This document shows positions 3,672 through 60,857 of a DNA stretch of 64,000 nt, in pieces. Within the stretch, counting starts at the first letter, position 1. Each line of letters begins with the position of its first letter. Source of the DNA: Cyanidioschyzon merolae (lineage: Eukaryota). Made by a program: the position numbers and the translations under genes. The notes beneath the pieces were generated by a model that saw only the letters and a program-made list of their open reading frames with translations, ran no database searches and was not told the origin of the DNA. Where the stretch lies: NCBI GenBank assembly GCA_000091205.1, contig AP006489.2. The stretch is one strand, 5' to 3'.

Positions 3672-4026
3672 TGCAGTTGGCGTAGGCGTCGGAGTTGCAG
3701 TCGGTGTTGCAGTTGGTGTCGCAGTTGGTGTTGCCGTCGGCGTAGGCGTAGGCGTAGGCGTTGGTGTCGCAGTTGGCGTTGGTGTTGCAGTTGGCGTAGG
3801 CGTTGGCGTAGATGTTGGTGTCGGTGTCGCGGTTGCCGTAGGCGTAGGCGTTGGTGTTGCAGTTGGTGTAGGTGTCGGTGTAGGTGTCGGCGTTGCAGTT
3901 GGCGTAGGCGTTGGTGTCGCAGTTGGCGTAGGTGTTGGTGTCGGCGTTGCAGTTGGCGTAGGCGTTGGTGTCGGTGTCGGTGTCGCAGTTGGCGTAGGCG
4001 TAGGCGTTGGTGTCGCAGTTGGCGTT

Positions 4027-4061
<35 letters not shown>

Positions 4062-4892: not shown

Positions 4893-4931
<39 letters not shown>

Positions 4932-8261: not shown

Positions 8262-8644
8262 CAGTTGGCTGGTCCAAAACGGCTGCGGGGCGTCTGCACC
8301 TCAGTTCCAGAAGTTTCGTCTAGGGCGGGTTTCTCGCCACTACTTTGCACCACTCGCGGGCGCGTTTTTTTCTGGAAAGGCGTTTGTTGTCGCTGCCGTC
8401 ATCCGAAATACCAAAGCCCTCCGTAGATCCTACTCGCGAAAGGCGCAGTTCTGTGCGCTCTGTATCGCTCTTGAGGCGCTGTACTTGTTATCGTCACTAT
8501 CCGCGCACTCGGTGCCACTAAGCATACTTGTATTCTTCGCTCTAGGTTTGTTCGCTGGTGAGAGTCACTCTAGCGTTCGCGCGACCTTCAGGCAGCGCTC
8601 GCTTGCAGCTTTTCGTACCTCAACGCGAACCCTAGGACTGCACC

Positions 8645-9103
8645 ATGCTTCTGCAGAAACGTCTGCTCACAGAGCTTAGAGAGCTCCGCGAAGACCCGAC
8701 AAACTTCTGCCTGGAGCCCGAGGAAGGCAACCCACTCCGGCTGCAAGGCTACCTGCGCGGACCCGCCGCTACACCTTACGAGGGAGGCTGTTTTCGCGTC
8801 GCGCTGACACTACCGCCTGCGTACCCGCTCGTGCCACCGACAGTGCGCTTTCTGACTCCAATATTTCACCCAAACATCAACTTCCGCACCGGCGAAGTTT
8901 GCCTTGACATTCTGCAGTCGGCGTGGTCGCCAGCCTGGAGCCTTGCGTCGTGTCTGAGGGCGATTCAACTGCTCCTCTCAGAGCCGGAGCCGTCGTCTCC
9001 ACTGAACTGCGACGCTGGGAACCTGCTGCGCTGTGGTGATAAACGAGGCTTCTGGTCGATGGCGCGTATGTACACCCTGCTGCTGGCCACGAGCAACGAA
9101 TGA
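8645..9103 (+). CDS. ubiquitin-conjugating enzyme E2 (UBC fold)
   Basis: 152 aa. HPN motif and catalytic Cys are present in FHPNINFRTGEVCLDILQSAWSPA. Confidence 0.85.
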   Translation: MLLQKRLLTELRELREDPTNFCLEPEEGNPLRLQGYLRGPAATPYEGGCFRVALTLPPAYPLVPPTVRFLTPIFHPNINFRTGEVCLDILQSAWSPAWSLASCLRAIQLLLSEPEPSSPLNCDAGNLLRCGDKRGFWSMARMYTLLLATSNE

Positions 9104-22524: not shown

Positions 22525-22545
22525 GTGGTGGTGATCGTCGGCTCG
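22483..22545. repeat. (GTGCTC)7 followed by (GGT)n microsatellite
   Basis: gtgctcgtgctcgtgctcgtgctcgtgctcgtgctcgtggtggtggtg. Confidence 0.9.
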
Positions 22546-25213
22546 ATTGCCATTTCCGTCATCATCTTATACAGCCTTGGTGCGCCCATGGTATCTGTGG
22601 TAATGCACTGTGATCAGGTGTTCGCATCCATCTAGACCGTCTCCTCATCCTCCGAGCGCTGCTCAGTGGCGCATGGACGCTTGCTTCGTCGCTCGCTGGA
22701 TGTCTCCAGTTAGAACTGAGGGCTGCTCTCGGTGCCCTCACTCCATTTTGCGTCTAGTGCCTTAATCTCCGATCGCAAGTGTCTTCTGGGCGATCATTTC
22801 TGCAAGTACGCTGTCCGCTGCACATGCAAGAGCATGCGGTTCTCATTGATACAGGATTTGTGGAACGCGATTTTCTTCAGGACTGGACAAGTACTGGCAG
22901 CGAGATCCACCCTAGCAGAGACGTCATGAGGTCTCTATATTTCCATGCTCCCTTCTTGCATAATTGTGAAGCTTTCCGCATTGGTAATGACCACTGCGAT
23001 GACTCAAGCCCGTGTACAAAAACCCTTGTTCAATCCAACAGAAAAGACGCAAGCCTCAGAGAGTGGACCCCTGGAGTGTTATCATAACGATGCGACTAGC
23101 CGTTCTATCGATGACCACAAAAATAATAGGGTTTGTCTTTTGAACGGAATCGATTTCTGGATTTGAAGATTTCAGTGAATGTTCGATATCAGCGTCTGAA
23201 AAATCCTCGAATGACGATGTCGATTACTTTCTCTCGTCAATCCAGCAGCGTGATTCGCTGCGCTCACGAAGTATCTTGGAGCAGAAACGACGAACACGTG
23301 CAGAATGCGTGATCTCAATATGATTTCCATGAGCAATGGAAAACAGCGGAAGCTTGTTCATATGCATTTAATGATGGTATCGTTTACTCTATGAGTATTT
23401 TTCCGGTCTCTGCAAATCATCTTGATTCCGGTCACATAACGAATTGTAGCAGCAACGATTCGGAGAAGTCACTTCGAAAAAGCGACCGAGAATCCGAATA
23501 CTACGTATGATGCGGTCAACCCTCAATAATGCGCTTCGAATTTAGAGGCTATACATCTAAAACCGTGTGATATGAGAACCTCAAAGCGGGAACAGCTCTG
23601 TATTTGCATCTGGTAGGGTTATGGGCAAGCACCCGCTTTGCCGAGATGTCTATAGGGCTTGATCGATTCGTCTACACATACCTTGGACGCACAATCGTTC
23701 AGGAGTAGCAGGTAAGCAGGTTCGTGGATTCCTCCCATATATTCTAGTGCGCCGCACGTGGCCTCGGTTCAGTATTCCGGTCGGGACCAGGGGCTTGATG
23801 TATCCAGCAACACTGCGCATGTCCGTCCTGACTGGGAATCTGATGCACGGGGACCGTATAGAGATCGAACGGCTTTTCGGTGCCTTGTCCGGTGCCGGCT
23901 CGAGGTTGCACAAATGCGCGGCGCTTAGTTCGTCTGTGTCCTGATGCTGGAGTTTTCCTCTGGTGACGAACGCGAATGCGTCGGATTTCATTTCTGTCTC
24001 GGAGCGAACGTGTTGACGGCCCTGTTACCTACTCTGGCTACATGTTTTAGGGGCGCTTTGGTAGCGACAGCAATGCACTCGTCTGGGAACAAAGCTCTTG
24101 TACCTAGTACTTTCAGCGAAAGCTTCCAGTGCTCGAAAACACTTTCGTCTTGCGCACGACGCACGGACATTTTCAATTTCCGATATGACAAATCTTCGGT
24201 TAGTTTCCATTGCTGAGAGGTGGTTTAGAGGCAGTTACAAAAAGTTCCCTCTCAGGAGAGATGATTTGAGGCCGCGCGAGGCCCCGTTCCGTGGACAAAC
24301 TAGTATTGGCAGTGGATTTTCCAAACATCCTTCCTATGAAGCAACCTGTTGCACTGGACCACGGTACTTAACGAACATCGCACACTGCATACATTCGCAT
24401 GGATTCTAGCACTCAACTGGGGCAATAGAACGCACGTTCCTGGTTCGAGTCCCGGCACACCCGAAGAAAATCATGCGGCACACACGAACCTGCTCTAGCA
24501 TGCAACATCACGCTATGCACACCACTGCTTACCCTGTATGGCAGCGCTCCGCAAGCGCAACACCTGTCTGAGCGTGCGCGTCTTCCCAGCACCAAGGACA
24601 TCCATCACCGATCATCGAGTACTCTGAACCGCTCGATCTTCGACTGCCGATGTCACTGGAGGGATACCGTCGACGTCACCGCAGACAGCTCCCGGCATCG
24701 GGCATCGCATCGCGGCATCTGCGAATCCATCCCGCAATGATTCATGGACATAATTGGATCTTATAGGAACATGAAAAGAACAATAATAGAGACATAAATA
24801 GACACTATGGGAGCATGTATGATGCGGCGCGGTTGGCGCTCGAACTCCAGATTCGTGTCCGCTGCGAGCAGCTGCGTTGCGTCCTGCATCATCTCCAGCT
24901 GGTGGCCAAGCGTGAGGCACAACAGGAACGTTGTGCTTTCTTCGGTGCTGGCAAAGCCCGTGACGCTAGGTGACTGAAACATTCAAGAACATAACCTAGA
25001 GCCGTTTTCGCTTGCAGAAGGAACCGAGCGAGGCCTTCACGTTCGAGGACTGTTGACTCGCGGGCTTGTCGTGCACACCCCGTCCCCAGAGGACGTGTGT
25101 CAACGCCTTTCCGGGTAGTAATTTCCTGGCGAGACTTTTTCTGTCATTAATCGTGTGAGACTTGGGCTTGCTGTGCCTGTTGAAGGAGAAGCAGCAGTAG
25201 CAGCAGTCCGGGT

Positions 25214-29621: not shown

Positions 29622-29832
29622 TTACAGGTACGCAGATGTAACGTAGGTCACATACGCGGGCAACAAGCGCCTGACTAGCACCAGTTCTACAGCCCGAGTC
29701 CTGTAGACCATGTTCGCAGACGCAACGTAGGCCAGATACGCAGGCACCAAGCGCTTGACTACCACCAGTTCTATGCTACAAGTCCTGTAAACCAGGTTCG
29801 CAGACGCAACGTAAGTCACGTACGCATACCCC
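29622..29832. repeat. 84-bp minisatellite, about 2.5 tandem copies
   Basis: Unit acgtaggtcacatacgcgggcaacaagcgcctgactagcaccagttctacagcccgagtcctgtagaccatgttcgcagacgca is repeated from 29725 at about 85% identity. A partial third copy follows. Confidence 0.85.
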
Positions 29833-33187: not shown

Positions 33188-35344
33188 CAGCGAGCTCGTC
33201 GTTCAAGTACGGGAAGCAGTGAAAGGTTTGACGTCCTGCAAAGGCGCTGGCGGCTTTTCCGTCTCGATCGAAAGCTTCGCATGATTTGATCCAAGAATAT
33301 CTATATGTATATTTAAGTCCATTTATCTGTACTATATGGTACATGGCCGCTAACAGGCGACGCATGACGCACTGCGCGCGCCGCTGGGGCAGGGACTTTG
33401 GGAGCGCCAAAGCATCCAGGGCTGCTTTGTTGCATCGAGACCAGTCTGTAGCACGTAGTCTGGCTTTGTTTGTTGCAGCGGCGCTAGTTTCTCAACAATG
33501 GCGAGGCACCAACTGGTTGCAGACACGCCCGCGAAGGACAACTGGCAAGTTCAGTGCTCATGCTACGCTCGATCGATACATGAATTTTGGGTATTCATGG
33601 AGCATTGAACTGCTCGCTACGTTCGTGCTTGAGGTATCTACGGATATTTTAGGTCCACATCCTGGACAGTCAAGGTACAGCCAGCAGCGTTTATGGATGC
33701 GTACATGCTGTTGGGATTGCTGGTCGTCATCTCTGGGTAGCTTCTTCAACGCTCCGCTGCTGCTATTCGTGAAATCATCAGAGTCAGGACGACTCACAAT
33801 GCCCACGAGCAAGGGATCAGCACATACCGGATACCAGTATCCGTACCAGACGTAGAGGCATCTATGTTTGTCGATTCCTTGTATATATTGTGCTCAAATC
33901 ATGAACTCTTGTTCAGGTTTTCGATCTATCCATTTCAAGGTAACTGATGGCGCCGCGATTCGCACCGCTGGATGGACGACGAAACAAACTCGTTTTCGTG
34001 CTTGACGAATTGTTCGCAAGCTCGTGCCCAAAGCTCACTGAACCTGTTGCGTCCAATTATGGTCTAATCCATTAGAAAGACCATTCCTCCTCTCATTGGG
34101 ACCACTGACGCAACAGCCTTCGACAACTGCATGATATCTCTCACGGGGTACGCGCTGAGAGGCTCCCGTCGCTTCTGTGTGCATAGAAAAGCGTCTCGTA
34201 CTCGAATTTCATTCACTGCAATAATCGCTTCAAAAGATAATTGCGTCGCCGCTTTGCACGAAAGGTGCTCAAATGGATCGAAATTTTCCGACTGGTTCTC
34301 GAGCCTAGATGCTGATTCTGGTACTTGATTCATCTTGATTGGCATCGCGTTCCGTAAATCCTTTTGTCGAATGGAATAGCGTGTGCGTTCGTGTCCAGCG
34401 GGCATCGCACTCGCGAAAGGGAGCTCTCAGCAGAGGCCCATCATTGCAGGATACGGTACAGAGCGTCCAAACACAGATAGGGGCATCGCGAGGAGCCCTC
34501 GGTATTCGTCAGGGGCATGCACCGAATGATGCAGCAAGCACTCATGTGGAGCATGGCGGTGCTCGGATGAGGAGCTACGCAGGACATGCGCAAATGCCTG
34601 ACCACAGCCAGGTATCCGTTTTGCGATGAGTGCACAAATGTTGCTCAAAGAGAACCTGGAACTGGTATACGAAGCGTAGCTAGCGACTCCAATACGTGTA
34701 TGCAATGCTTCAACAACGGCTGGAAACAGCGATATCGTGACTTGAACGCCGCTATGAAAATCTTTCGGCCGCAGGAAAAGGAGCTAGAGCAAAAAGTCCC
34801 TGACATTTAGTGCTCTGCACAAGAGAGGAAACCGGAGTAGTCGCAGGAAGTGCCCGCCAGACTTGTATTTATGGCACGCGTAAGAACCGAACAAGCGAGC
34901 ATGTGTGTCCGTGCCTGGTGACTTGCGCCATTGTAGCCTGACATGGGCCTATCTCCCCTCATTTTGTACTAGTAGCAGATGAGGCGTCTCGCTCTGACCA
35001 CAGGTGCTTAGAGCCACTAGCGTTGCATCGTAGGGTACATGCGTTGCGATCTGCCTGTCCATCTGTCTGGCTCGAGTCAACGATTTGCGTGCTGGAGCAA
35101 AAGCCGGAAACCCGCGAGATGGAACGAGAATGCGGACGGGATTCCAATGCTAGCCTGCTTGCCGTGGTTGTTCCCTCTCAACGGTGCCATACACAACCGC
35201 CTCCAATCAAAAAACGTCCAAGCATCCGCGACAATCGGTAGTACCTTCAATTCCCCAACGAATTCCAGGCGACGCGAGATACGTACGCATTCCGAGACTA
35301 CAGCGTTCGATGTGAATCGCCTTTCCAACGGGCTTGTGGCCGTT

Positions 35345-46362: not shown

Positions 46363-46857
46363 GTCACTGATCCAAGCAAAGCCCGAATACGAAAACAGCG
46401 CTTGACAAGCAGCACAGCGTCAAGGACAAAAAATCGGGCGTTACTGGAATGGACGTCCCTCGAAAACGTCTGTGTGCTGGACTGCAGCAACGTTGACGTC
46501 GAGTCGCCGGACTGGGTATGCAACGTCCGTGAATGTTGACGAAGACTTCATCTGGTTGATCTTGATAGACGACGATCAGTAAAGGTCGCGCAATAACTAT
46601 TGGAAAGAAGCGCTCTGGAGTGACCACGAACCGAACCTCGCAGTACGAGTGACGGGTTTTACAGTTGCGCCAGACGCTATACTTTTGCTACTCGTTGAAG
46701 GCCTGCTAGCGGATGCGAAAGGCGTCAGACATCCACTGCTCCTGTCCAGTGTTCGAAGACGACCGTGAGACGCACTATTATGCCTCAGTGCGAGTTGCAT
46801 ACCGCCGCTGTAAGCGTTCTGCTGGCGAAAGCGTGCTCGTCGAAACCTGTTGATCGT

Positions 46858-46890
<33 letters not shown>
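46858..46890. repeat. (GAT)11 microsatellite
   Basis: gatgatgatgatgatgatgatgatgatgatgatgg. Confidence 0.9.
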
Positions 46891-46895
<5 letters not shown>

Positions 46896-47130
46896 GCTCC
46901 GTCGGGGTAGGCTCCACTCGTCGCACGACCAGCGACCCCTGGTGTGTGGAGCTGTTCCGTTGGACAAAAGCCCTGAGCGGAAAAAGAGGCAAGCGAGCAC
47001 AAGGCCTGGCAAAACTTCTTCGAACCTTGAGGTTGTACGCAGATATCAGATTAAAAAGGAGCAGTGAACTGCTCGCATTCGTTCTGCCCGTCAATATTTC
47101 AGCGAATTGTTCAAAAGCATAGCCTCGAAA

Positions 47131-48317
47131 CTCCCAATCCATCCATAAGCGCTTATGGATGCATACGTCGTTCGAGGACCCCTGGTCTTTTTTTCGGAGT
47201 GGTTCGCTCACCGCTTTGCTGCCGGCACTCGTTTCGATACAGGAATCGAGGTGGTTCACGACAACCTCGAATACATATTCGTGAATTGGCCTGTATCCTC
47301 ATCCAATGCGAACGTGCAAGCCGCTGCTCTTCTGCATTCCGGAGGTATCGCATGCCGGAATCACGCATTTTCATGCCCGGAATCTTTCTGTATCGAGGCA
47401 GCGAATAAGTGCAGAAAATTCCCACCTTTACATGGGCACGAAAAGCATTTCGTCTTCGCCTGCTAGCGAATTCTGCACTGGTTCATGGCGAGTCATCACT
47501 GAATGTGTCACGTCCAACAATCCGCTGCGTTCGAATGGCCAATGGCCCTCTCGTTGTGGTGAACGACGCACTGGCATTCGACAGCATCTTGATACGTCTC
47601 ACAGGATGTGCTCGCGGGGACTCGCGTCTTTTCCTTTTGCATTTCGAACGGTCTTCGACTTGGACGTTCTCTTCGCAGCAATCGCTTCTAGTGGAGCGTG
47701 CGTCATCGCGTCGCACGATACAAGCAATGGCCAGCTCGATAGATGTCGATCTGTTTTCTTTCCTGGATTTTCATCGCAGTATTTGTTCCATCACGAACAT
47801 TACCGAGTTCCACAAATACTTTATCGAATGGAACAGTGTGCACTTGCATTTGCAGCAGAGAGCGTACGTGCCGAGAGCATCATCTGCAAGTAGCCCGTGC
47901 GTATAGGGTACGGTATCGGGCACGCAAACCGAGACAGGTATAGACAATGCCCTTCTATACCCGTCAGTAACGTGTAACAATCGATGAAGCAAGCGCTCAC
48001 AATCGACAGCATGGCTCCCCGGAGTGGCAGCATGGTGTACGCGTGCGAACATTCGACCGCAGTCGGCTGGCACCGTCGCATACGGCAAACCTCTTTCGCA
48101 TACGCAGCAGATGAGCATACCAAGCGAAAAGTAGACCGCAACGCCGACCTACGCATCCAGTGCGTCCCCCGAAGCCGGAAGCAGCCAAATACTGACTCTA
48201 ATGTTGCCGGCAACATCCTTCACCAGCTGACAAAGAAGCCGGAAGGACCAGAGCGTCCAGCGTACTACACTCCAGAGGTAAAAGAGATGACTCTGAACCA
48301 GTCACAGAAAAAAAGCC
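47131..48317 (+). repeat. 1,187-bp dispersed repeat, copy 1 (direct repeat; left boundary of the nitrate-assimilation block). Family unknown; could be a solo LTR or a non-autonomous element.
   Basis: About 99% identical to 59673-60857 in the same orientation. Starts tcccaatccatccataagcgcttatgg (contains a 16-bp palindrome ccataagcgcttatgg) and ends ...cagtcacagaaaaaa(a)gcc. The internal ORFs are not protein-like. Confidence 0.9.
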
Positions 48318-49584
48318 CGCAGAGGCTGGTGTTATTGACAATAGCCAGAGATGCCTTCGTTAAGCTGTACGCGGATATTGGCAAGGCTTTTCTTTCTCGT
48401 CATGACATTGTCACGTGTATACCATAATGTATTCCTTGCTACAAGCTTTGCGCAGCGCATTCGCGGAAGGTGCGCTTCGTTCCAGCGAAGAACGCACGAA
48501 TCGCACGGGAGTCCCGCAGAATTCCGAAAGCCGTCCCTAACCTCAGCACAGACATTCAGGTGCTCTGACGGCGCTGCAATGCACCATGTATCCCATTGAT
48601 GCCACCCGGTTCGGACTGGGGCGTGATCCCTCCCACGATTCACCTGGTGTAGTGCTTACCCCAGACGCTTGCTCTGGCGACGTGCAAGTGTCCCATGGAG
48701 GCGTGAACGCTCGTCACGGCCTTTACTGACATCGGCTCGCTGTCACAAGGACTGATGCGCTCTGCTTGGTGCTGTCCGGATCCAACAAGCAGATCCACTT
48801 TCTTAAAGACGTACGAGAGATGAATGCAGCGGGGCATTCAGAGAGGCACCAATATCACCGCTTGACGAGGCATCAGTCTGGACGCTGCCCCAGGGGATGC
48901 TACGTGCTGCCACACAGATTGCAGCGTAGGCGTCCATAGGCAGCGTCGCTTGCGAAGCGATCGATGTCGGGCATACATAAACGCTCGAGAGAAAAAAACA
49001 AATCGGTTCCCGCCATCTTCGCATGGAGCGGCGAGATGTCGTCAAGCAAAGTTCATGGAACGATTTTCCAGCCAACGTAACATCGATTACCAGCTCACGA
49101 ACCGAAAAGCGATCCTTGATATGCGCAAAGTTTGCCAAGAAGGTCAGGATGTATCTTGGCACACATTTCGGTGTATGTTGTTATGAAAAGGAAAATGTAT
49201 TTTCCTGCGCTTTTTAGTTATTTCCTCGTCACTTCGGAACATGGATATGTCGATTACGAATGCGTATGCACCCATAACCAATGAATGGCAAGACGCGTTG
49301 CAGAGAGAATCACCCGAACCCTGGAGAACCCAGGTGCACATGCCTGCGTCCAATCATCGGTCGACCGGGCACGTGCTGGATGCATTGCCCTCTCGATCGC
49401 GCTTGTACCGTCAGTTGCCTGAAGTCTATCTGATGCATGCTCCGAGGTGGCGAACCACCATCTCTTGCAGTGCATGGTGCAGCATGACGACTGCCTTGCA
49501 AAGTTAGCCGTACCACCGCATGCATATATCCTGCACATCCACATGTGCCACGTAGACTCATTCACGAAGCTCTATCTCGGATGC

Positions 49585-51291
49585 CTACGGCTTCTGAGCT
49601 GGATGCACGTCCGAAACGTGTTCCGCCTCAGGGCGTGTGCCACGATCAAGAGCACTTGTCGTTTCCACCGGTTCAATCGAGTCGCGCATGACGCTCTGCA
49701 GTGCGCCAGTATTCATGGGTTCGCCTATCGCTACGATCGGCGACATAGCCTTGTCGTCTGGCGGCTGCTCCGAGACACCAAGATCGTCCTTTTGGAGACT
49801 CAAGCGATTCAGCGCACGCAATTCTGCATCAGATATTCCAATGGTCGTCACTTTCACGGGGAGTGGCCAAAGCAACAGAAACGACAAGACTGAGATACCC
49901 AGCACGACAAAGGAGATTAGGCGAACCGCATCCGGATCGCTCATGTGGCTAAACACAAGACTGAGGGTGACGCCGCCAGTATTCCCGCCCGCACCAACGA
50001 TACCACCCACGGACCCGGTCGCGATCGGATCCACGAAGGGGACGATCGCGAAAACTGCGCCGCATGACGCCTGCGTGAAAAGGGAAAAAAGAATCAAAGT
50101 GGGTATTGCTGCACCGATGGTCGTCATCCGGGAGAAAACCAAGCAGAATACACCCTCGAGAACCAGGTTCGCGAACAACCAGAGCACACGTCCGCGCATG
50201 CTGTAGCGACGCGCAATCAGATCCGAGCCAATACCGCCAACAGCCCGCGCAAACAGGTTCATTAGTCCAAAGAGACCTGCCGCAACACCGGCTATCGATT
50301 GATCAAGGTTGAAGACTTTGTTGAAGTAAGTAGCCAGCACGTTATCCATGGTCAGCTCAACACCGAAAGAAGACGCATACAGGCAGAACAGCACATACGT
50401 TCGCGGATTTCTTGCTGCTCGCGCAAAAGCCTCGAGTGCTGAAATCGGGCGCAAGTTCCCGATTCGATAGAGATTCTTGTAGTCACCGTCTGGGCAGTCG
50501 TCGGAGAAGAAGAACAAGACCACGGCCCAGATCAGGGCCATGGTACCAGGGATCACCATCACGACTCGCCAGGCTTTTTCCTCGTCCAAACCGAAGACCT
50601 TCATCAAGTTATAGAACTGCGGCATAAGCGCATTGGTGGCGCCACCGCCCGCATTGCCCCATCCCGCTGCAACCGCATTCGCTGTTCCAATGATATTCCT
50701 CGAGAACATCAGCGCACACCAGTACTCAGTTACAACGAAGGTTGCACCAAGACCGCCGATGAAAAAACGTGCTGTGGCGAATGATGCAAAATTATACACC
50801 GTTCCGAACAGATACACCGGGATTGAGAACACCGCCAGCAGGAGCGCCTGAACACGTCGTGGCCCGAAGCGGTCCACCAGGGCACCAGTCACCATGCGCA
50901 TGAACACTGTACCTGAAAGCGCAATCGCATTCGAGTGCGCTTTGTTCGCTTTGGTCAAGTCCAATGCTTTGTCCGAGGAAATACTCGGTAAAAGCGCTGG
51001 TACCGCAAACCAACCGAAAAACGCGATGAAAAAGGATGACCATGCAAAGAAAAAGGCCCGCATATGCGGACGGTCGAAGCGCCACGGCTCCAGGCGCCTT
51101 GCCCGGTGTAGGGCATCGACTGGCAAACGGTACGAATACAGCGGAGCCGCCACCGACTCCACTTCAAGGTCTTTCCATTCTTTACTGTTCGGACGCGAAG
51201 GCCCCAGAGATGAGTCGAGGGTGTCGTCTCGGAGGAGGATCTCTTTCTCGTCCAACGCTGTAGGGACAGGTTGGCCAGCTCCCTCCGCCAT
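49585..51291 (-). CDS. NRT2: high-affinity nitrate/nitrite transporter, NNP/NRT2 family (MFS)
   Basis: 568 aa with 12 predicted TM segments. NNP signature AGWGNAGGG and GGLGATFVVTEYW are present. The N- and C-terminal tails are hydrophilic. Confidence 0.9.
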   Translation of the reverse strand: MAEGAGQPVPTALDEKEILLRDDTLDSSLGPSRPNSKEWKDLEVESVAAPLYSYRLPVDALHRARRLEPWRFDRPHMRAFFFAWSSFFIAFFGWFAVPALLPSISSDKALDLTKANKAHSNAIALSGTVFMRMVTGALVDRFGPRRVQALLLAVFSIPVYLFGTVYNFASFATARFFIGGLGATFVVTEYWCALMFSRNIIGTANAVAAGWGNAGGGATNALMPQFYNLMKVFGLDEEKAWRVVMVIPGTMALIWAVVLFFFSDDCPDGDYKNLYRIGNLRPISALEAFARAARNPRTYVLFCLYASSFGVELTMDNVLATYFNKVFNLDQSIAGVAAGLFGLMNLFARAVGGIGSDLIARRYSMRGRVLWLFANLVLEGVFCLVFSRMTTIGAAIPTLILFSLFTQASCGAVFAIVPFVDPIATGSVGGIVGAGGNTGGVTLSLVFSHMSDPDAVRLISFVVLGISVLSFLLLWPLPVKVTTIGISDAELRALNRLSLQKDDLGVSEQPPDDKAMSPIVAIGEPMNTGALQSVMRDSIEPVETTSALDRGTRPEAEHVSDVHPAQKP

Positions 51292-51439
51292 GCCGGAGTG
51301 GTCAGGACAGCGGTTTTGTGCTCAACACTTAAGTACGTTATGTATGTCGGGGAAACGCACCAAGCGTCAACTCCCCTTCCGCTGACAAGTTGTGGCAGAC
51401 ACAAAGTGCCTCTCAACTGAATGCCAAACACGAATACAA

Positions 51440-51525
51440 CGTGTGGCGCACGCATGCACCATCATGCGTGCATCGCCGTGCGCACGCATGCGATAGGTCG
51501 ATGGCGCGCGCGCGCGCGCCGCTGC
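51440..51525. promoter_or_regulatory. candidate cis-element cluster in the divergent NRT2-NR promoter: three CACGCATG(C) cores (51449-51456 +, 51463-51470 inverted, 51483-51490 +) forming a 9-bp inverted repeat, followed by a (GC)9 tract (51503-51520)
   Basis: Read directly: gtggcgcacgcatgcaccatcatgcgtgcatcgccgtgcgcacgcatgcgataggtcgatggcgcgcgcgcgcgcgcc. It lies ~150 bp upstream of the NRT2 ATG (51291) and ~650-750 bp upstream of the NR ATG. Confidence 0.4.
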
Positions 51526-52163
51526 AACCGAATCGTTGACCGTTGAACGAATACGGAGGCGTACGCCAACGCCAACAACGCATCACGCCCACACGTGCTG
51601 GACACACGATGCCGATCCCGAAATACGACGCCGCTACGCTCCTGGACGTGGCGCCAACGAACGGCTCAACAGATTCGTGACAGGAGCAACAAGAACAACA
51701 ACAGTGACATCGCGAACGTGTTTCCTAGTTCGCGTAAAAGGCAAACGTGCAGCTGTACACCAGCGTTAGAAACTGGTTGGTGAGTTTTGAGGGGCACTTT
51801 TGAGTTGCAAGCGTTTGGAGGGTTTTTTAGAATTGTGGAGTTTGCTAGTTGTTGGTTGTAGTTGCCGTTCACGGAGCTAGGGTGCGAACACGACTTGAGG
51901 GCGTGGGGTGCTCGCCAGCACTCCGTTGTCACCGTGAAAATTCTGCAAGACTGCTCGGACGTGTTTTATTAGCTCTGAGTTCTATCGTCTGTGCAATTGT
52001 GATTTTTTTTGTTAGTGAACAACGAAGAAGAAGGTGGAAAACGAGTCGAGCAATCTAGCCGAAACGTGTGACCTCGCTCTGGGACGCGAATCTTGTTCGC
52101 TGAAACGCCCTATCGTCGAAAGACTGGAACCAAGAAGAATTCAAACGAAGCTGAAGGCCGCGA

Positions 52164-55109
52164 TTGTATGCTCGCTCGTGTCGACTCTTCAGTCAGTACC
52201 CCAATTGTGGATACCTTGCAAGGTCTCGGGACTGTCTATTCACGTACCACACGATGCACACTGTACCGGAGGGCTGCAGCTCCCCGCGTGCCGATGAGCA
52301 GACTAAGCTGATGCGCCAACAACCGCATGAGAACGGCACCAAACCGGCGATATTGTCGGAAGCGAGCGCGCTGCTCGCTGCAATGAGGCACTGGGAGGAG
52401 CAGCTCGCGCAGCGCCAGCTCCCCATCGACAAGCGAGATCAAAACACACCCGACGACTGGGTGCCTCGTCATCAGGCGATGGTGCGTCTCACGGGGAGGC
52501 ACCCGTTCAATGCCGAGCCGCCACTATGTTTGCTAGATCAGGATCTCACGAGCCAGGAACTTCACTATGTACGGAACCATGGAGCAGTCCCGCATCTGAC
52601 CCTGGGCACGCACCGCATTCATATCAGTGGCCTGGTAGAACGTCCGGGCGCGTTTTCTGTAGAGGAACTGCTCGCGCTGGGGGAGCTCGTCACGATCCCT
52701 GTGACCCTCGTGTGCGCTGGCAACCGGCGCAAGGAACTCAATCAAATACGCCAAAGCATTGGTTTCCACTGGGGTGCAGGCGGCGCCTCCACGTCCTTCT
52801 GGACAGGGGTACGTTTGGCGGACGTCCTCCGTCACTGCCAAGTCTGTGAATCTCCGAAAGCCCGTTATGTATGCTTCACTGGTGCTGATGAGCCAGCGAA
52901 AGGTCCGTACGGTACTAGTATACCGCTCGCGATGGCGCTGGATCCGCACGCTGACGTACTCCTAGCGGTTGCTCAGAATGGAGCGCCTCTACATCCGGAC
53001 CATGGGTATCCTGTTCGACTTTTGGTGCCAGGATGGATTGGCGGGCGCATGGTCAAGTGGCTGTCCCATGTTGAGGTTTCAGACCGCGAATCGCAGAACC
53101 ATTACCATTTTTTTGATAATCGCATCATGCCCCCACACGTGGATAAGGAGCGCGCCGACTCGGAGAAATGGTGGTATCGCCCCGAGTACCTTTTCAACGA
53201 GCTGAATATCAACTCGGCGGTAGTGCGCCCGCTGCACGATGAATTGCTTCCGCTGCACCATGCGAGCGAGCAGCATTCCTATCGTATCGAAGGCTACGCC
53301 TACAGCGGCGGTGGCAGACCCGTCACGCGTGTGGAGATCACTTTCGATGACGGTCAGCTTTGGAATCTGTGCGAGCTGCGGCATCCTTTTGAGCCGAACG
53401 CAGCCGGACGGCAATGGGCCTGGAGTCGCTTCAGCTTCAATGCATCACTCGTGCATTTGCTGTGTTGCACCGAGTTTGCAGTCAGGGCCTGGGATAGCAG
53501 CAACAATACACAGCCGCATCGCTGGACCTGGAACGTCATGGGTATGGGCAATAATGCGTGGTACCGCGTGCGCGTCTCACCGGTACCCGATCCCGGCACC
53601 GGACGTATTTCGCTGCGTTTCGAGCATCCTACAGTGCCGGGGCCGACGGCTGGCGGCTGGATGGGTTCCAGTACTGTCCCAGGAGCGTCGCACTCGGGGC
53701 AGCAACCAGCTGTGCCTGCACCAGCAACAGAACATGCACTGCGAGACGCCCCGGAGGCGAAGCGCGACATCGCCCAAATGGCTGAGCGGGTGCAGATGCC
53801 ACCTGTGCCGAACGCAGTTGGCAGCACGGTGCATGGCTCCAATGTGTACCAACAAATGATGCGCAAAAAGACCGCGGAAAAGCTCCAGCAGGCGCAACAA
53901 CGCCTCTATACAAGCGCCCAAGTTGAGCGGCACCAGAGTGAGACCGATCTTTGGATCGTAGTGCGCGGTCGTGTCTACGACGTGACGCGCTATCTGAACG
54001 AGCACCCCGGTGGCAAGGCGGCGATCATGATGAATGCCGGACAGGATTGTACCGAAGACTTTGAGGCCATTCACTCCGAGAAAGCCTGGAAGTTGCTGGA
54101 TGACTTTTACATCGGAGAATTGGCTCCTGCTGGGTCATCCGCAGATGCGTCGCTCTCGTCGTCGCCTCATCTGGCGTATACGGACTCGTCGACGGATCTG
54201 CTGCGGGAGCAGTTCTCCAGAGACGCAGTCATTCACGCCGATGCCGCTGACGGCGCCTGTACCGAGAGTATCGATGGATGCCGCCCGGCATTAGACCCAA
54301 AGAAATGGAAGGACTTTGTGCTCGCCAGCAAGTCGTATATCACGAAGAACACGGTGCGACTGCGCTTTGCTCTACCTGATGTCAACCAAGTGCTGGGTCT
54401 GCCTACAGGGAATCATTTGCTCATTCGGGCGCGAATTGAGAACAAGAATGTCGCACGGGCGTACACACCGACGAGTCTCGGCCACGAAGCCGGCTTCTTC
54501 GAGCTTGTGATCAAAGTGTACCGCGCGGGCGCGCATCCTTCATACCCGTCTGGCGGGAAAATGTCGCAGTATCTGGAACTGCTTCGTATTGGAGACACGG
54601 TGCAGGTCAAGGGCCCACTTGGGCACTTTAGCTACGTCGGACTTGGCGCGTACATGTTACATGGACGAGCTGGAAGGGCGCGGCGGTTCGCTTTTCTTTG
54701 TGCAGGCAGTGGCATCACGCCAGCGTTCCAGGTGATGAAAGCAATCCAGGTTGAGCTTCAAGAGCATGCGAAACAGTCATCTACACCGTTTCTGGATGCT
54801 ATATACCTGGTCTACGCGAATCGAAACGAGGACGAGATTCTGCTCTTCCAGGAACTCGAAGCATGGCGCCAGTGCGATGCGCGCTTTCAGTTCTGCTACG
54901 TACTGAGTCAACCGTCGGAAGCCATTTCCAAAACGTTTCCGGAGGCTGTCGTTGGCCACGTGAATCAGGAGCTGCTGGCAGCCCGTCTACCGGGGCCACG
55001 TAGTGATCTTATTATCGGCATTTGTGGTCCAGCGGGATTTCAGGATGATGCGTGCATTCCGGCACTGAAAGCTCTGGGATATACTTCGGAACAGTTTTTT
55101 ACGTTCTAA
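52164..55109 (+). CDS. NIA: assimilatory NAD(P)H nitrate reductase (Mo-cofactor/sulfite-oxidase fold, dimerisation, cytochrome b5, FAD/NAD(P)H reductase domains)
   Basis: Mo domain: WVPRHQAMVRLTGRHPFNAEPP ... HYVRNHGAVP ... CAGNRRKE. b5 domain: LWIVVRGRVYDVTRYLNEHPGG. Reductase domain: RAYTPTS ... GKMSQYLE ... GSGITP ... GPAGF. Intronless; the likely start is the Met at 52251. Confidence 0.92.
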   Translation: MYARSCRLFSQYPNCGYLARSRDCLFTYHTMHTVPEGCSSPRADEQTKLMRQQPHENGTKPAILSEASALLAAMRHWEEQLAQRQLPIDKRDQNTPDDWVPRHQAMVRLTGRHPFNAEPPLCLLDQDLTSQELHYVRNHGAVPHLTLGTHRIHISGLVERPGAFSVEELLALGELVTIPVTLVCAGNRRKELNQIRQSIGFHWGAGGASTSFWTGVRLADVLRHCQVCESPKARYVCFTGADEPAKGPYGTSIPLAMALDPHADVLLAVAQNGAPLHPDHGYPVRLLVPGWIGGRMVKWLSHVEVSDRESQNHYHFFDNRIMPPHVDKERADSEKWWYRPEYLFNELNINSAVVRPLHDELLPLHHASEQHSYRIEGYAYSGGGRPVTRVEITFDDGQLWNLCELRHPFEPNAAGRQWAWSRFSFNASLVHLLCCTEFAVRAWDSSNNTQPHRWTWNVMGMGNNAWYRVRVSPVPDPGTGRISLRFEHPTVPGPTAGGWMGSSTVPGASHSGQQPAVPAPATEHALRDAPEAKRDIAQMAERVQMPPVPNAVGSTVHGSNVYQQMMRKKTAEKLQQAQQRLYTSAQVERHQSETDLWIVVRGRVYDVTRYLNEHPGGKAAIMMNAGQDCTEDFEAIHSEKAWKLLDDFYIGELAPAGSSADASLSSSPHLAYTDSSTDLLREQFSRDAVIHADAADGACTESIDGCRPALDPKKWKDFVLASKSYITKNTVRLRFALPDVNQVLGLPTGNHLLIRARIENKNVARAYTPTSLGHEAGFFELVIKVYRAGAHPSYPSGGKMSQYLELLRIGDTVQVKGPLGHFSYVGLGAYMLHGRAGRARRFAFLCAGSGITPAFQVMKAIQVELQEHAKQSSTPFLDAIYLVYANRNEDEILLFQELEAWRQCDARFQFCYVLSQPSEAISKTFPEAVVGHVNQELLAARLPGPRSDLIIGICGPAGFQDDACIPALKALGYTSEQFFTF

Positions 55110-56342
55110 AGCCGTTTGTTTGCGATTTTTTTCTCCCAGTGATAAGCAGAAGACTTCGATGCAGTCTCGTCGCAGTGCTTGTCATACAAGCCAATACCGC
55201 GCTGCTCGCACCAGACGTGCACCCGCAACCTTCCTCTGAGTCTACGCAGTTCGCACGCTTTACCCCAAGGTGGAAAGCGCGTCAGCCAGCGCACCGGATT
55301 CGTGCATGCTGGCCATGCGATGCCATACGCAACGCGCCCGAGCCAATGAACAGCCGACGACCGCACTCGCTGCCCAGGCACGCGTTCCTCCGTGCCCCTG
55401 GACCGCTCAGCAGCACTGGCGCTCCAGGCGGGTCCCAGAGCTTCGAACGAGCACCTACGCCGCGACCGATGCCATACGAATTGTGCAAGAGGCGTGCACC
55501 TACCAAAGTGAATCTGTATTTCCTGGAAAGCGCACGACGGCCCCATGATGGGCCATACGCTTGAAGACCGCACAAAAAATTCGGAATCTCTGCGACGTCC
55601 TGATCTCTCTCTGACGCGAAGCGCCGGCATCGCACACCGCGGAACCCGGCAAATCGTGTGGCGGCGGTAGCGCCCGGCAGCGCATCGTCAAACCGGCGAT
55701 GATCAGCATATGGCATGCCAATCAGCGACAATAATGGATCATTTAGTTCCAAAAATTACAAACTTACCATCGCTCGGTAGATCGCCGAGTCGCATGTACA
55801 TTGCGGACGATGCGCAGCCGCCGTGCGTGCAGCGACCACCTGAACGGATGGCGCAGCTGATCGACTCGCGGTGACCCGCAGCGTTCGCCGTCTCAGATTC
55901 GGAACGGAAACGGATCGGATACCGATGGACTCGGGCGTCTCTATTGCCCAAAGCTTGCCTGCGCTGCGACCATATAGCGTCGCAGCAAGAAGCGAAAACT
56001 GAGCCTCATGGCACCGACCAAGTGCTGTGTCTTTCGCTGCTGCGCGCGAGCTGTGTTTGGGCGTAGCACTGCCTAGTGTCGGCGATTTGGCTATTCCCTG
56101 GTGCTAGCGCGCTGACACAAATGAGGTGCTCTGAATTTTTACGGTCACTGAAAAAGACGGCAGATAGCCCCTTGGTCGGCGCTTCGGTTTTAACAAGACT
56201 GCCAGGAGCCCGCGGCAACTCTGACATCAGCCTCTGCTATCGGTTCCCGCCTCATAGGCTGCACCCTTGAGGAATTCGTTCCAGCACGCACCCTGATCGC
56301 GTGCTTACCCGAGAATGCTGTTCATGGATTCGCCAGCAGCAG

Positions 56343-58403
56343 CTACGATACGGGCGCTGCCGGCACCCCATCCCAATAACGTTGCGCATACGCCTCGAGT
56401 TGCGCCTTCCCAACTCGATCGCAAAAGTCTCCAAAGGACTCGTCCGGCTCGCGTGCGCTTTTCCAGAATACAAACACCGGCTCCAGGACGCGCTCCACCT
56501 GATCGTCCGTCACCCGATCGATATACGGCCACGCGAGGCGCGTCTGCATCGGGCTCCCGCCCAGCCACACCTGATACGTACAATTCGGACCTGATCCGAC
56601 GAATCCCAACTCGGCCATGTACGGACGCGTGCACCCGTTCGGGCATCCAGTCATGCGCATCACGAACGATGCGTGCGGCGAGATGCCGACTTTGGACAGC
56701 AGCTCGCGCACGCGCTGCACGTAGCGCGGCATGACACGCTCCGCCTCCGTGATCGCCGGCGGACACAGCGGCAACGCTGGACACGCCATCGCGTCACGCA
56801 TCAGCGGATCCAGTGCGGATGCTGCCGTCTCGACGCCGAACGACGCCAGCAGCGTCTCGACGTCAGGGCGCGCTGTCGCTGGCACCTGCGTGATGAGAAG
56901 GTTCTGCTGCGGCGTACATACCAGGGGAAAGTTGAAGCGATCCGTTAGGGCACGGAGTGCTTTCTTCAGCTCGTCTTTGATCCGCCCGTTCTGTACGTAG
57001 AGGCCGAAAAACCAGCGTCCGTCTCCTTGCTCGCGCCAACCCAGATAATCCTGGAAAGTCCACGGCGGCATGGAGCGTATCGACTCTAGCGCACTGCCAC
57101 CACCCACCATATACGACTTGACGAGTTCGCGGAATCGATCGATGCCCAGCCGATGCACCAGGTACTTCATCCGGGCGTTCGTGCGAACTGCACGATTGCC
57201 GTGGTCCCGCTGGGCAGCCAAGATCGCTTTGAGTGTGTCGTACAGCGCCGCTGCCGGTACGTACCCCAGCGGATCGGCAGCACGCGCGAAGGTCTCCTCT
57301 TTGTTATGAGTGCGACCCATGCCGCCGCCGACGAGAATATTGGCACCTTCCAGTTGACCCTGCGCATCACAAAAAACGACGATTCCAATGTCGTGTGTGT
57401 AGATGTCGATAGAATTATCCCCGGGAACAGTGACACCAACTTTGAACTTGCGCGGAAGGTACAGCTTTCCGTAAAGCGGCTCGACGGAATCCTGCAGAAC
57501 CTGACCACGCCCGTTATCCTCCGTCATGAGTCGTCGAACTTCGTCCATGTCCAGCTCCTTCTTCCAGTACTCGATGCTGGCGGCAAGCTCCCCATCGAGC
57601 CACAGATCCGCAAACGCGTGCGACTGAATCGCGAACAGCTCTGCCACCATTCTGGCAACGTGTCGTGCCTGCGCATACGCGGCATCGACGAAGGGCGCCG
57701 GCGGCGCGATGACGTTGCGCGAGCAGTCGCCGCTCGCACCATACAGCCCGCCGCCCGCTCGCACGATGCTCTGGACGACGGTTTTCAGATTGGATTTATG
57801 GATGCCGTGGATTTGGAACGAAGAGCGCGTCGTGAGCCGCAGCGTCTTGTTCCCATAGGTTTCACTGATGTCGTCGAGTGTCGTATACAGCGAAGGCGGA
57901 CACTCGCCGGCGGGCATTTTCAGACGGAGCATGAACTGGTATTTCTTGAGCTCCCCGCGAACACGTTGATCTCGGTTATCTTGGAGATATCCGCCATGGA
58001 ACTTGATAAGTCCGATGCAGTCATCGGAGATGAAGATCTGGTCGTTGCCCAGTTCTTCCATTAATGGGTGACGAAGATAGTCCGAGTTCAGTTTCGGCAA
58101 CTCGTATGGATTTAGCTTGAGCTGGTCGAGTGTCCCGTCACGGATTGCTTCCTCGATATGCTTCCGCGTTGTGATCGGCACGACCGTATGCTTCTTCCGA
58201 GACTGTTCAGATGAGAGGTTTGCTATGATGTTCCGCCGGGCGGTTCGGCACTGCCGTTGGCGTCGTAGTCGGTCTCGCAACAGTACCTCGGTCAACGGAT
58301 AAACGCCCGGTGCTGCGGAACCGGTGGGTGCCAAACCTCTGCGAGCGCCGACTAGAGGTTTTGCGTACGTGACGAACATCATCAGAGTATACCGCACGCG
58401 CAA
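56343..58403 (-). CDS. ferredoxin-dependent siroheme/[4Fe-4S] nitrite/sulfite reductase family enzyme. The Cys-cluster motif is SiR-like; cluster context implies a nitrite reductase role.
   Basis: LKLNPYELPK ... YQFMLRLKMPAGECPPSLYTTLDDISETYG ... LRLTTRSSFQIHGIHKSNLKTVVQSIVRAGGGLYGASGDCSRNVIAPP is typical of plant/algal Fd-NiR/SiR. The metal-site block TGCPNGCTRPYMAELGFVGSGPNCTYQVWLGG resembles plant SiR (CPNGCARPYMAELGLVG...YQIWLGG) more than canonical NiR (CPNSCGQVQVADIGFMG). Confidence 0.85.
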   Translation of the reverse strand: MRVRYTLMMFVTYAKPLVGARRGLAPTGSAAPGVYPLTEVLLRDRLRRQRQCRTARRNIIANLSSEQSRKKHTVVPITTRKHIEEAIRDGTLDQLKLNPYELPKLNSDYLRHPLMEELGNDQIFISDDCIGLIKFHGGYLQDNRDQRVRGELKKYQFMLRLKMPAGECPPSLYTTLDDISETYGNKTLRLTTRSSFQIHGIHKSNLKTVVQSIVRAGGGLYGASGDCSRNVIAPPAPFVDAAYAQARHVARMVAELFAIQSHAFADLWLDGELAASIEYWKKELDMDEVRRLMTEDNGRGQVLQDSVEPLYGKLYLPRKFKVGVTVPGDNSIDIYTHDIGIVVFCDAQGQLEGANILVGGGMGRTHNKEETFARAADPLGYVPAAALYDTLKAILAAQRDHGNRAVRTNARMKYLVHRLGIDRFRELVKSYMVGGGSALESIRSMPPWTFQDYLGWREQGDGRWFFGLYVQNGRIKDELKKALRALTDRFNFPLVCTPQQNLLITQVPATARPDVETLLASFGVETAASALDPLMRDAMACPALPLCPPAITEAERVMPRYVQRVRELLSKVGISPHASFVMRMTGCPNGCTRPYMAELGFVGSGPNCTYQVWLGGSPMQTRLAWPYIDRVTDDQVERVLEPVFVFWKSAREPDESFGDFCDRVGKAQLEAYAQRYWDGVPAAPVS

Positions 58404-58619
58404 CTATGTTGAAGGCGCTGCTCTGGCACGAGCTCGAATGGCCAGCAGAGCTTAAACGAAGTAAGGCAAAAGCCATCCTGAATTCATGCGTTCCTATCGA
58501 TCCCACGGGTGCGTGTTATCCAACGGATCACGGATCCGTTGAGCATCGCAGACCTGTCCAGTTAAGTCTATAGTTGGCTCGTTTTGAATCTCTTCGCAAA
58601 GGCGCGCAGCGTGCCCCAC

Positions 58620-58680
58620 GCGCACACGTGCCGAAGATTCGTGCGATGCCGATCCGGCCTCATAGCGGACACGTGTCGCA
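58620..58680. promoter_or_regulatory. two G-box-like CACGTG palindromes (58625-58630 and 58670-58675) upstream of the reductase gene
   Basis: ccacgcgcacacgtgccgaag and ggacacgtgtcgcaagg, 220-270 bp upstream of the ATG at 58403. Confidence 0.3.
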
Positions 58681-59672
58681 AGGAAATGCCGTGCACGCAG
58701 CGTCCTTCCCATGGCCGTTATGTACAGTATGATTCATGTTAATTGTTTTAAGTGGACAAGTCTTGACACATGCCAGTGTTCTCCAACCGTGCGCTTCCTA
58801 TCAGCGCGCGGTGAAGCATCGCTCGATTCACCTACTTCCAAGTTCCATAACCCTTACCTCTTCTTGGATATACTAGCCGCTTCATACGTTCTATCGTTCG
58901 CCGCGTGCCTGCCCTGCTGCATCTGGAATAGCGATTATAGTGCCGGTGCGGTCGTAGCACGGTTACGGAACGGCGTTGCAGTTCCACAGAGGGCGTCGGC
59001 GCGAGAGTATACATGAATATCCACACACAGACGCCTCTCAGCTATTCTTGACCGGCCGACTTCTATCGGTTTCAGTTTCTGCTAGAACACTTCCAGCTTG
59101 AGAGGCTGCACCACAAAACTCGATCGCGACAGCTCCTCGGATGTCGTCTTCAACACTGCATATCGTCGGATATTGATAGCGGCGTCAAAGTCTCGGTTCA
59201 CGAATTCCGTCTGTTCATTGGCTCAGGTGGGACTCAACAAAGCAAGGATTCCTAGAACTCGCGCCTTCTGTGCAAGCAAGGCCTCGTCATCGCACCGTCG
59301 GGAAGCACCTGTTGACGCCAATCTCCCCTCTTGTTCTTCGTATTCTTTTTCACTTGCTCTTCTTCGCTCGATGGTATGCGAGAGGAGGATTGTTTTCGTT
59401 TTTCCTTTCGCGGCAGCCGGCGACAGCGGGCCCCCAGGATCCCTGCCGTCCACGCCCGTTCCTTTCCCTTGAATTTTATTTCTCCAAATGAAAGCACTTT
59501 GAGCACATCTGCTGTACGCTGCGAGAAAGTACTTGATGACATGCACCCGGGTCTGAAACACATTTGAGTTGAACGACGGTAAGATTCATATGCAACGCTA
59601 AATTTTTTGCACCGATCCCGCCTCAAGCTATTTCTTCCGAACGTTTCCTACGATGCACAGTATAATTATTAT

Positions 59673-60857
59673 TCCCAATCCATCCATAAGCGCTTACGGA
59701 TGCATACGTCGTTCGAGGACCCCTGGTCTTTTTTTCGGAGTGGTTCGCTCACCGCTTTGCTGCCGGCACTCGTTTCGATACAGGAATCGAGGTGGTTCAC
59801 GACAACCTCGAATACATATTCGTGAATTGGCCTGTATCCTCATCCAATGCGAACGTGCAAGCCGCTGCTCTTCTGCATTCCGGAGGTATCGCATGCCGGA
59901 ATCACGCATTTTCATGCCCGGAATCTTTCTGTATCGAGGCAGCGAATAAGTGCAGAAAATTCCCACCTTTACATGGGCACGAAAAGCATTTCGTCTTCGC
60001 CTGCTAGCGAATTCTGCACTGGTTCATGGCGAGTCATCACTGAATGTGTCACGTCCAACAATCCGCTGCGTTCGAATGGCCAATGGCCCTCTCGTTGTGG
60101 TGAACGACGCACTGGCATTCGCCAGCATCTTGATACGTCTCACAGGATGTGCTCGCGGGGACTCGCGACTTTTCCTTTTGCATTTCGAACGGTCTTGGAC
60201 TTGGACGTTCTCTTCGCAGCAATCGCTTCTAGTGGAGTGTGCGTCATCGCGTCGCACGATACAAGCAATGGCCAGCTCGATAGATGTCGATCTGTTTTCT
60301 TTCCTGGATTTTCATCGCAGTATTTGTTCCATCACGAACATTACCGAGTTCCACAAATACTTTATCGAATGGAACAGTGTGCACTTGCATTTGCAGCAGA
60401 GAGCGTACGTGCCGAGAGCATCATCTGCAAGTAGCCCGTGCGTATAGGGTACGGTATCGGGCACGCAAACCGAGACAGGTATAGACAATGCCCTTCTATA
60501 CCCGTCAGTAACGTGTAACAATCGATGAAGCAAGCGCTCACACTCGACAGCATGGCTCCCCGGAGTGGCAGCATGGTGTACGCGTGCGAACATTCGACCG
60601 CAGTCGGCTGGCACCGCCGCATACGGCAAACCTCTTTCGCATACGCAGCAGATGAGCATACCAAGCGAAAAGTAGACCGCAACGCCGACCTACGCATCCA
60701 GTGCGTCCCCCGAAGCCGGAAGCAGCCAAATACTGACTCTAATGTTGCCGGCAACATCCTTCACCAGCTGACAAAGAAGCCGGAAGGACCAGAGCGTCCA
60801 GCGTACTACACTCCAGAGGTAAAAGAGATGACTCTGAACCAGTCACAGAAAAAAGCC
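59673..60857 (+). repeat. 1,185-bp dispersed repeat, copy 2 (direct repeat; right boundary of the nitrate-assimilation block)
   Basis: Collinear with 47131-48317 with ~10 substitutions and one 1-bp indel. Example differences: cgcttaTggatg vs cgcttaCggatg, gaCagc vs gcCagc, ttCgac vs ttGgac. Confidence 0.9.

Follow-up and report, generated by a model that had tools for sequence, protein, structure and literature searches.

The genome of the model alga Cyanidioschyzon merolae is considered almost redundancy-free. In a 64-kb window of chromosome 7 of strain 10D (the window being the whole stretch of DNA analyzed here), one of the few long repeats of this genome brackets an entire nutrient pathway: three physically adjacent nitrate-assimilation genes lie between two near-identical direct repeats, and environmental DNA indicates that wild populations vary in having the pathway.

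Genes and repeats at the nitrate locus

The three nitrate genes all fall within positions 49585–58382. An NRT2-type nitrate/nitrite transporter (NRT; CMG018C, BAM79552.1) lies on the minus strand at 49585–51291; it matches Pfam MFS_1 (E=8e-22), an exact protein look-up returned “nitrate transporter,” and its gene number follows PMC4549557. The nitrate reductase (NR; CMG019C, BAM79553.1, 951 aa) is on the plus strand at 52254–55109. Its open reading frame (ORF; 52164/52254–55109) encodes the five NR Pfam domains in order, namely molybdenum-cofactor, dimerization, cytochrome b5, FAD, and NAD domains, and its identity was confirmed by exact look-up. The third gene, on the minus strand at 56343–58382, encodes a ferredoxin sulfite reductase (SiR)-like nitrite reductase (NiR; CMG021C, BAM79554.1, 679 aa), with Pfam NIR_SIR and NIR_SIR_ferr domains and an exact look-up match. 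NCBI names this protein ferredoxin sulfite reductase, while PMC4549557 names it NIR; its role as NiR goes back to Imamura et al. 2010, as cited in PMC6400420 and PMC4549557. CMG018C, CMG019C, and CMG021C are known nitrogen-regulated nitrate genes (PMC4549557).

Comparison of the repeat copies by self-blastn and MAFFT places the left repeat (the core of copy C, non-coding) at 47132–48317 and the right repeat (copy D) at 59673–60857, both on the plus strand. They are 1186 and 1185 bp long and share 99.3% identity over 1186 aligned columns, differing by seven substitutions and one 1-bp indel in an A-run. The copies are separated by 11,355 bp (12,541 bp from start to start), their identity falls off sharply at both edges, and self-comparison shows the pair to be the sole long repeat within 44–64 kb. 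The original prediction had described 47131–48317 and 59673–60857 as collinear, same-orientation copies, and its coordinates were essentially right, apart from the left copy starting at 47132 rather than 47131. It correctly gave the 1-bp indel but put the substitutions at about ten. It also saw no target-site duplication at the outer junctions, and the alignment and junction sequences bear this out, with none flanking either copy. Of the internal palindromes that it listed, CCATAAGCGCTTATGG is present but is perfect only in the 10D left copy; position 47156 is C in all other copies examined.

Four of the seven substitutions that distinguish C from D crowd into 117 bp of the right copy (60122–60238, equivalent to 47581–47697). 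The right-copy states at the equivalents of 47581 and 47697 occur in no other copy examined, and 47627A and 47656G recur in several of the solo copies described below.

The flanking genes were predicted to be a golgin and BioDA, and exact look-ups agree. To the left is a GRIP-domain/golgin-like gene (BAM79551.1; 42622–46350, minus strand; UniRef name “GRIP domain-containing protein”), and to the right is a bifunctional BioD-BioA gene (BioDA; CMG023C, BAM79556.1; 61032–63440, minus strand), which has Pfam AAA_26 and Aminotran_3 domains and is numbered as in the supplementary table of PMC11376382. A (GAT)n microsatellite at 46857–46892, upstream of the golgin-like gene, differs in length among nearly all strains compared. 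The prediction that only three genes lie between the repeats holds for the three nitrate genes, as Pfam and look-ups show, but not for the word “only,” since annotation also puts a hypothetical gene, CMG022C, between CMG021C and BioDA (PMC11376382). CMG022C is C. merolae-specific and was reported to be up-regulated more strongly than any other gene upon E2F knockdown (PMC11376382); none of the 12 ATG-initiated ORFs tested in the 58.4–61.0 kb spacer matched an NCBI protein.

The two repeats are independently reproduced in metagenomes

An assembly duplication, a concern raised along with the original prediction, is excluded by independent metagenome contigs that cross the junctions of both repeats. 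The exact NRT protein was found on many metagenome contigs, which are 99.2–99.5% identical to the window. One of these, L001 (ENA), has the order NR-NRT-repeat-golgin-SKA2-BUD31 and so crosses both junctions of the left copy (golgin side and NRT side). Another, L002 (JGI), reads BioDA-repeat-SiR-NR-NRT and continues into the second repeat; it crosses both junctions of the right copy (SiR side and BioDA side) and carries one full and one partial copy on one contig. Together, L001 and L002 independently reproduce all four junctions. The remaining cassette contigs end inside the repeats, 127 or 141 bp in (JGI, ENA) or 30 bp in (Logan contig L010). Such breaks are the expected behavior of a genuine two-copy repeat in de Bruijn assembly, and 30 bp is consistent with a small k-mer. 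That the duplicated 1.19-kb block is an artefact of the 10D reference can thus be dismissed with near certainty: nothing speaks for it beyond the general risk that near-identical repeats carry, while the four junctions are reproduced, the two copies are told apart by their substitutions and indel, and the 10D genome was finished to completion (PMC1955436). The C/D repeats are not an assembly artefact.

A cassette-minus allele in natural populations

BioDA protein-variant look-ups and a metagenome-contig scan with an exact 24-mer from the repeat yielded 12 contigs from 12 samples (L011, L012, L015, L017, L021, L024, L025, L027, L029, L032, L033, and L035), in which BioDA is followed by exactly one repeat and then by the golgin-like gene, with SKA2 and BUD31 also present in the longer contigs. 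These contigs align to window positions 64000–59673 and from 48317 or 48314 downwards, with an overlap of exactly one repeat. L027 is the longest: it starts from SBDS, covers BioDA, the repeat, and the golgin-like gene, and extends past BUD31. At the junctions, the golgin-side flank meets the start of the repeat and the end of the repeat meets the BioDA-side flank, with no added bases, and the boundaries are exactly 47132 and 60857. The interval absent from this allele, 48318–60857, spans 12,541 bp: the 11,355-bp cassette together with one repeat copy, either C or D. The original prediction had proposed, as one of two possibilities, that recombination between the repeats would pop out the whole pathway and leave a solo repeat, which might be found in other strains, and this is the allele that these contigs carry.

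Because the 1.19-kb repeat exceeds typical short-read insert sizes, an assembler could enter the repeat from the BioDA side and exit on the golgin side in a genome that in fact bears the cassette, and one contig (L023, described below) shows that the opposite mis-pairing may occur. We consider it improbable that the solo contigs arose in this way. They come from three pipelines (newer JGI assemblies, older JGI assemblies, and the two Logan assemblies L015 and L035), and the Logan cassette contig L010 stops 30 bp into the repeat, as at a true two-copy repeat. A further 11 samples yielded cassette-bearing contigs; in every cassette-bearing sample, the same JGI pipeline breaks at the repeat, and the BioDA contigs of such samples (L016, L034) end there rather than running through. 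Among the contigs retrieved, no sample had both allele types. The solo repeats also fall into three sequence types. One has 47136G, 47431T, and 47436A, and a second has AAG inserted into the terminal A-run; neither left nor right copies show these variants. With some residual doubt, we judge the cassette-minus allele to be real, on the basis of short-read assemblies.

Exchange between the copies and the route of loss

The natural C/D locus has the features of a deletion locus, i.e., same-orientation repeats of 1186 bp at 99.3% identity and a deletion allele with one repeat and unchanged outer flanks. The exact repeat-to-repeat boundaries point to homologous recombination, supporting the original prediction that the repeats are a substrate for pop-out. 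In C. merolae 10D and Cyanidiococcus yangmingshanensis, intrachromosomal recombination between engineered direct repeats deletes the cassette that they flank (PMC13353863).

The copies appear to exchange sequence with each other. At positions 47342, 47506, and 47545, the two 10D copies agree with each other, as do the two copies of the L001/L002 strain, but the two strains differ; other variants are spread in a mosaic over left, right, and solo copies. Gene conversion would be expected to give such a pattern, and it probably keeps C and D about 99% alike. When the solo repeats were compared with the chimera of left-copy and right-copy sequence that a single exchange would leave, the copies again proved to be mosaics. 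At the A-run at the right end, all solo copies have at least seven A, like the left copies, and both sequenced right copies have six. Single-strand annealing in which mismatches were patchily repaired, or instability of the homopolymer, may fit this better than a single crossover, although the evidence is weak either way.

One contig, L023 (Ga0209012_1005188), joins window positions 52228–47132 to 60857–56541, giving the order NR-NRT-repeat-SiR upstream region-SiR, which is the reciprocal junction. L023 is 100% identical to the L001/L002 strain. It may come from a cassette that was excised as a circle or duplicated in tandem, or equally from assembler mis-pairing, because the two repeat copies of that strain are identical over 895 bp. 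If the junction is real, an excised or duplicated cassette exists too, and recombination through a single repeat could in principle restore the pathway.

The nitrate cluster is older than the repeats

The nearest relatives of BioDA outside the species are those of Cyanidiococcus yangmingshanensis (63% identity) and Cyanidium caldarium (52% identity). The contigs from both (L019 and L038, respectively) have the order SET/RRM-BioDA-SiR-NR-NRT-next gene, i.e., the same locus, order, and orientation. In Cyanidiococcus, the gene after NRT (1211 aa) is at its start 68.5% identical to the N-terminus of the golgin-like protein (BAM79551.1), and in Cyanidium, SKA2 comes after the gene next to NRT. The BioDA-SiR and NRT-next gene spacers measure 508 and 963 bp in Cyanidiococcus and 421 and 507 bp in Cyanidium, compared to 2.6 and 3.2 kb for their counterparts in the window, and an nhmmer search with the profile of the repeat family found no match to the element in either locus. 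Base composition of the cassette is likewise unremarkable: its genes have GC contents of 0.55–0.59 and third-position GC (GC3) of 0.62–0.69, compared to 0.57–0.59 and 0.55–0.64 for the flanking genes, which we judged non-deviant.

The same cluster at the same locus in two relatives, with short repeat-free spacers, argues that the NRT-NR-NiR cluster is ancestral at the golgin-BioDA site, that the repeats arrived later, and that the cassette-minus allele is a derived deletion. This runs against two suggestions of the original prediction, that insertion of the cassette left the repeats as its footprint and that the cassette is a laterally mobile cluster, perhaps recognizable by its GC or codon usage. 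In its strongest form, the insertion idea would make the solo site ancestral and bring the cassette in later, by lateral transfer or by Campbell-type integration of a repeat-bearing circle. A circle of repeat plus cassette integrating into a solo repeat would yield exactly the sharp-edged direct repeats observed, L023 is one contig with a circle-type junction, and transfer of nitrate clusters is known from other eukaryotes (PMC6400420). We nevertheless regard a late arrival as very unlikely, as it is contradicted by the synteny with repeat-free Cyanidiococcus and Cyanidium and gains nothing from the GC and GC3 of the cassette; furthermore, a repeat-bearing circle presupposes a cassette that is already flanked by repeats.

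The repeat is a member of an older non-coding family

Sensitive blastn detected two diverged copies of the repeat elsewhere in the window: copy B at 33599–34784 (plus strand; 54–58% identical, 165–183 bits) and copy A, inverted, at 22543–23562 (minus strand; 54–59% identical). Copies A and B score 135–183 bits, while the maximum in 40 dinucleotide shuffles was 35 bits. Over about 1.2 kb, the three family lineages show pairwise identities of about 54–55% and only 11–13 gap runs. The family thus counts at least four copies within 22–61 kb of the window, with a unit of about 1.2–1.4 kb. Copy A also has a 48-bp simple-repeat insertion of the CACGAG/CACCAC type (about 22.3–22.4 kb; columns 1125–1172 of alignment A2), which is absent from the other copies.

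Homology between B and C (33599–34784 to 47058–48239) runs 74 bp past the 99% block on its left, so that 47058–47131 (plus strand) is a stretch of the older family present in copy C and not in copy D. The left part of C and copy B have in common a 27-bp block, GGAGCAGTGAACTGCTCGCATTCGTTC (z=9.8 vs. shuffles). The flanks of copy D show no significant similarity to those of C, A, or B. Together, these observations make the right copy look like a left-truncated duplicate of the left one. We also considered the 99% block as a gene-conversion tract within two old in-situ paralogues, whose flanks MAFFT aligns at about 45%; this was rejected on local-alignment scores against shuffles, in which only C-left/B-left is significant.

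The unit, which runs TCCCAATCC...AAAAGCC, has neither TG..CA ends nor terminal inverted repeats (TIRs). Its ORFs have no Pfam match, including no transposase, integrase, or reverse transcriptase domain, and Rfam and ARAGORN found no structured RNA and no tRNA over the whole window. A coding unit was rejected, as tblastn between copies gives hits in several frames and on either strand, and codon periodicity is non-significant overall. Mutation of the family resembling repeat-induced point mutation was also rejected, with a transition/transversion ratio of about 1 and no CpG depletion. The original prediction that the repeat has no protein-like ORF is therefore upheld, with no Pfam match and no frame conserved between copies. 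Its suggestion of a non-autonomous element is right in so far as the repeat belongs to a non-coding dispersed family. From these comparisons, we describe the repeat as a non-coding unit of an older dispersed family.

Two same-orientation, near-identical units of about 1.2 kb bracketing a gene set, with older diverged copies elsewhere in the window, could also terminate a mobile element with the nitrate genes as cargo, whether as a pair of long terminal repeats (LTRs), a TIR element, or a composite transposon. The ends, the flanks, and the ORFs of the unit lack the terminal motifs, target-site duplications, and enzyme domains of such elements, the genes between the repeats are host genes that keep their synteny across three genera, and the genome of C. 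merolae yielded no LTR retrotransposons (PMC1955436). The 24-mer scan of metagenome contigs recovered the near-identical unit at this locus only (the diverged family being outside its reach), and a scan of viral contigs found no copy of the repeat. A mobile element carrying the nitrate genes is thus highly improbable, and the solo LTR of the original prediction falls with it.

The window also contains other repeats. Part of the SiR-upstream spacer (58801–59298) is 65–69% identical, in inverted orientation, to 5578–5782 and 8023–8296 in an ORF-poor 5.9-kb region (5298–11164), and these matches represent a second old dispersed non-coding repeat family. Inside the ORF at 1347–5297 (minus strand, 1316 aa), degenerate, GGTGTT-like tandem repeats (6/30/156 bp) extend over 2.5 kb at positions 2587–5107, which would make the encoded protein highly repetitive. 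At 29625–29826, an 84-bp unit occurs in tandem (2.4 copies, 82% identity).

A model for pathway loss

Altogether, an ancestral cluster, repeats that arrived later, and repeat-to-repeat deletion in the wild very probably account for the locus. An old, vertically inherited NRT-NR-NiR cluster would have resided between the golgin-like gene and BioDA. After the split of Cyanidioschyzon and Cyanidiococcus, a non-coding element of about 1.2 kb (copy C) would have come to lie between the golgin-like gene and NRT, and a 1,186-bp part of it may then have been duplicated into the SiR-BioDA spacer (copy D), bracketing the cluster with direct repeats. Exchange between the copies, probably by gene conversion, would hold them alike. 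Recombination between C and D, by intrachromosomal crossover, unequal exchange, or single-strand annealing after a break, would remove all that lies between and leave one repeat that joins the golgin-like gene to BioDA, with NRT, NR, and the SiR-like NiR lost. From what is established about the pathway, loss of these three functions should leave cells unable to use nitrate, and this is the phenotype that we would expect of cells with the deletion.

Several observations weigh against this reading. The evidence for the deletion allele comes entirely from short-read metagenome assemblies, and mis-pairing of the L023 type could in principle yield false solo contigs too. L023 itself shows the reciprocal pairing of the SiR side, the repeat, and the NRT side, possibly through assembler error. 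The solo repeats are not clean chimeras of a left part from the left copy and a right part from the right copy. The direction of duplication from C to D hangs on one significant flank similarity, that of C-left with B-left.

Population picture and significance

Solo alleles occur on at least three flanking haplotypes per side, and the BioDA-side haplotypes of solo contigs are also found on cassette-bearing contigs, including single-nucleotide polymorphisms about 110–130 bp from the repeat. This haplotype pattern suggests that the deletion is either recurrent, or old and since recombined. Meiotic recombination and heterozygous diploids are documented for C. merolae (PMC13353863), and nitrogen in sulfuric hot springs is chiefly ammonium, not nitrate (PMC13200283). 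With ammonium as the main nitrogen source, selection on the nitrate pathway would be relaxed. It is possible, though we put it forward only tentatively, that the deletion has arisen at least twice and that a sexual C. merolae population maintains it as a presence/absence polymorphism that follows local nitrogen supply (ammonium-only vs. occasional nitrate).

Where ammonium dominates in acid springs, the locus offers a concrete, testable route by which nitrate use could be lost. Among 10D variants that resist chlorate or do not use nitrate, this 12.5-kb deletion is predicted to be frequent, and engineering with the NR, NIR, and NRT promoters or at this locus calls for caution. The locus also implies that a repeat-flanked nitrate cluster is no evidence of lateral mobility.

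Comparison with known systems

Our literature search found no paper that describes the C/D repeats or their deletion. The deletion resembles solo-LTR formation by LTR-LTR recombination in that a pair of flanking direct repeats is reduced to a single copy with loss of the interior; however, the C/D repeats have no TG..CA ends and no target-site duplication, and what they enclose is ancestral host genes, without gag or pol. As a dispersed, C. merolae-specific, intergenic repeat family, the repeat also recalls the 253-copy interspersed element with a truncated WSV486-like ORF, which has a mean length of 3.2 kb and is dispersed on all chromosomes (Nozaki et al. 2007, PMC1955436). Compared by description, the two differ in length and ORF content: the C/D unit is about 1.2–1.4 kb without a conserved ORF, whereas the WSV486-like element averages 3.2 kb with a recognizable truncated one.

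Eukaryotic nitrate-assimilation gene clusters show patchy loss or transfer, as Slot and Hibbett reportedly described in 2007. The same patchiness is treated by Ocana-Pallares et al. 2019 (PMC6400420). The C. merolae locus is like these in that NRT2, NR, and NiR sit together and the pathway is either complete or missing altogether. Unlike transferred clusters, it shows no sign of transfer and has been syntenic since before three cyanidiophycean genera diverged, and unlike other patchy clusters, its polymorphism lies within one species, with the mechanism visible.

The human microdeletion/microduplication loci that arise by non-allelic homologous recombination have much in common with it: direct low-copy repeats of about 99% identity, gene conversion (probable at the nitrate locus), deletion with breakpoints in the repeats (possibly recurrent at the nitrate locus), and an expected reciprocal duplication. 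The nitrate locus is of much smaller scale and belongs to a unicellular haploid-diploid alga, and its reciprocal product is hinted at by one ambiguous contig (L023). The closest parallel is the engineered removal of markers or cassettes between direct repeats in C. merolae 10D and Cyanidiococcus yangmingshanensis (PMC13353863; Takemura et al. 2018, as cited there), which is the same reaction in the same organism group and also leaves one copy. Here, by comparison, the repeats are natural, 1.19 kb long, and 12.5 kb apart, a three-gene metabolic pathway is lost, and the product is found in the wild rather than selected in the laboratory. The mechanism, in which homologous recombination between direct repeats deletes what lies between, is known; the locus adds a new, natural example of it, in a model organism in which it can be tested directly.

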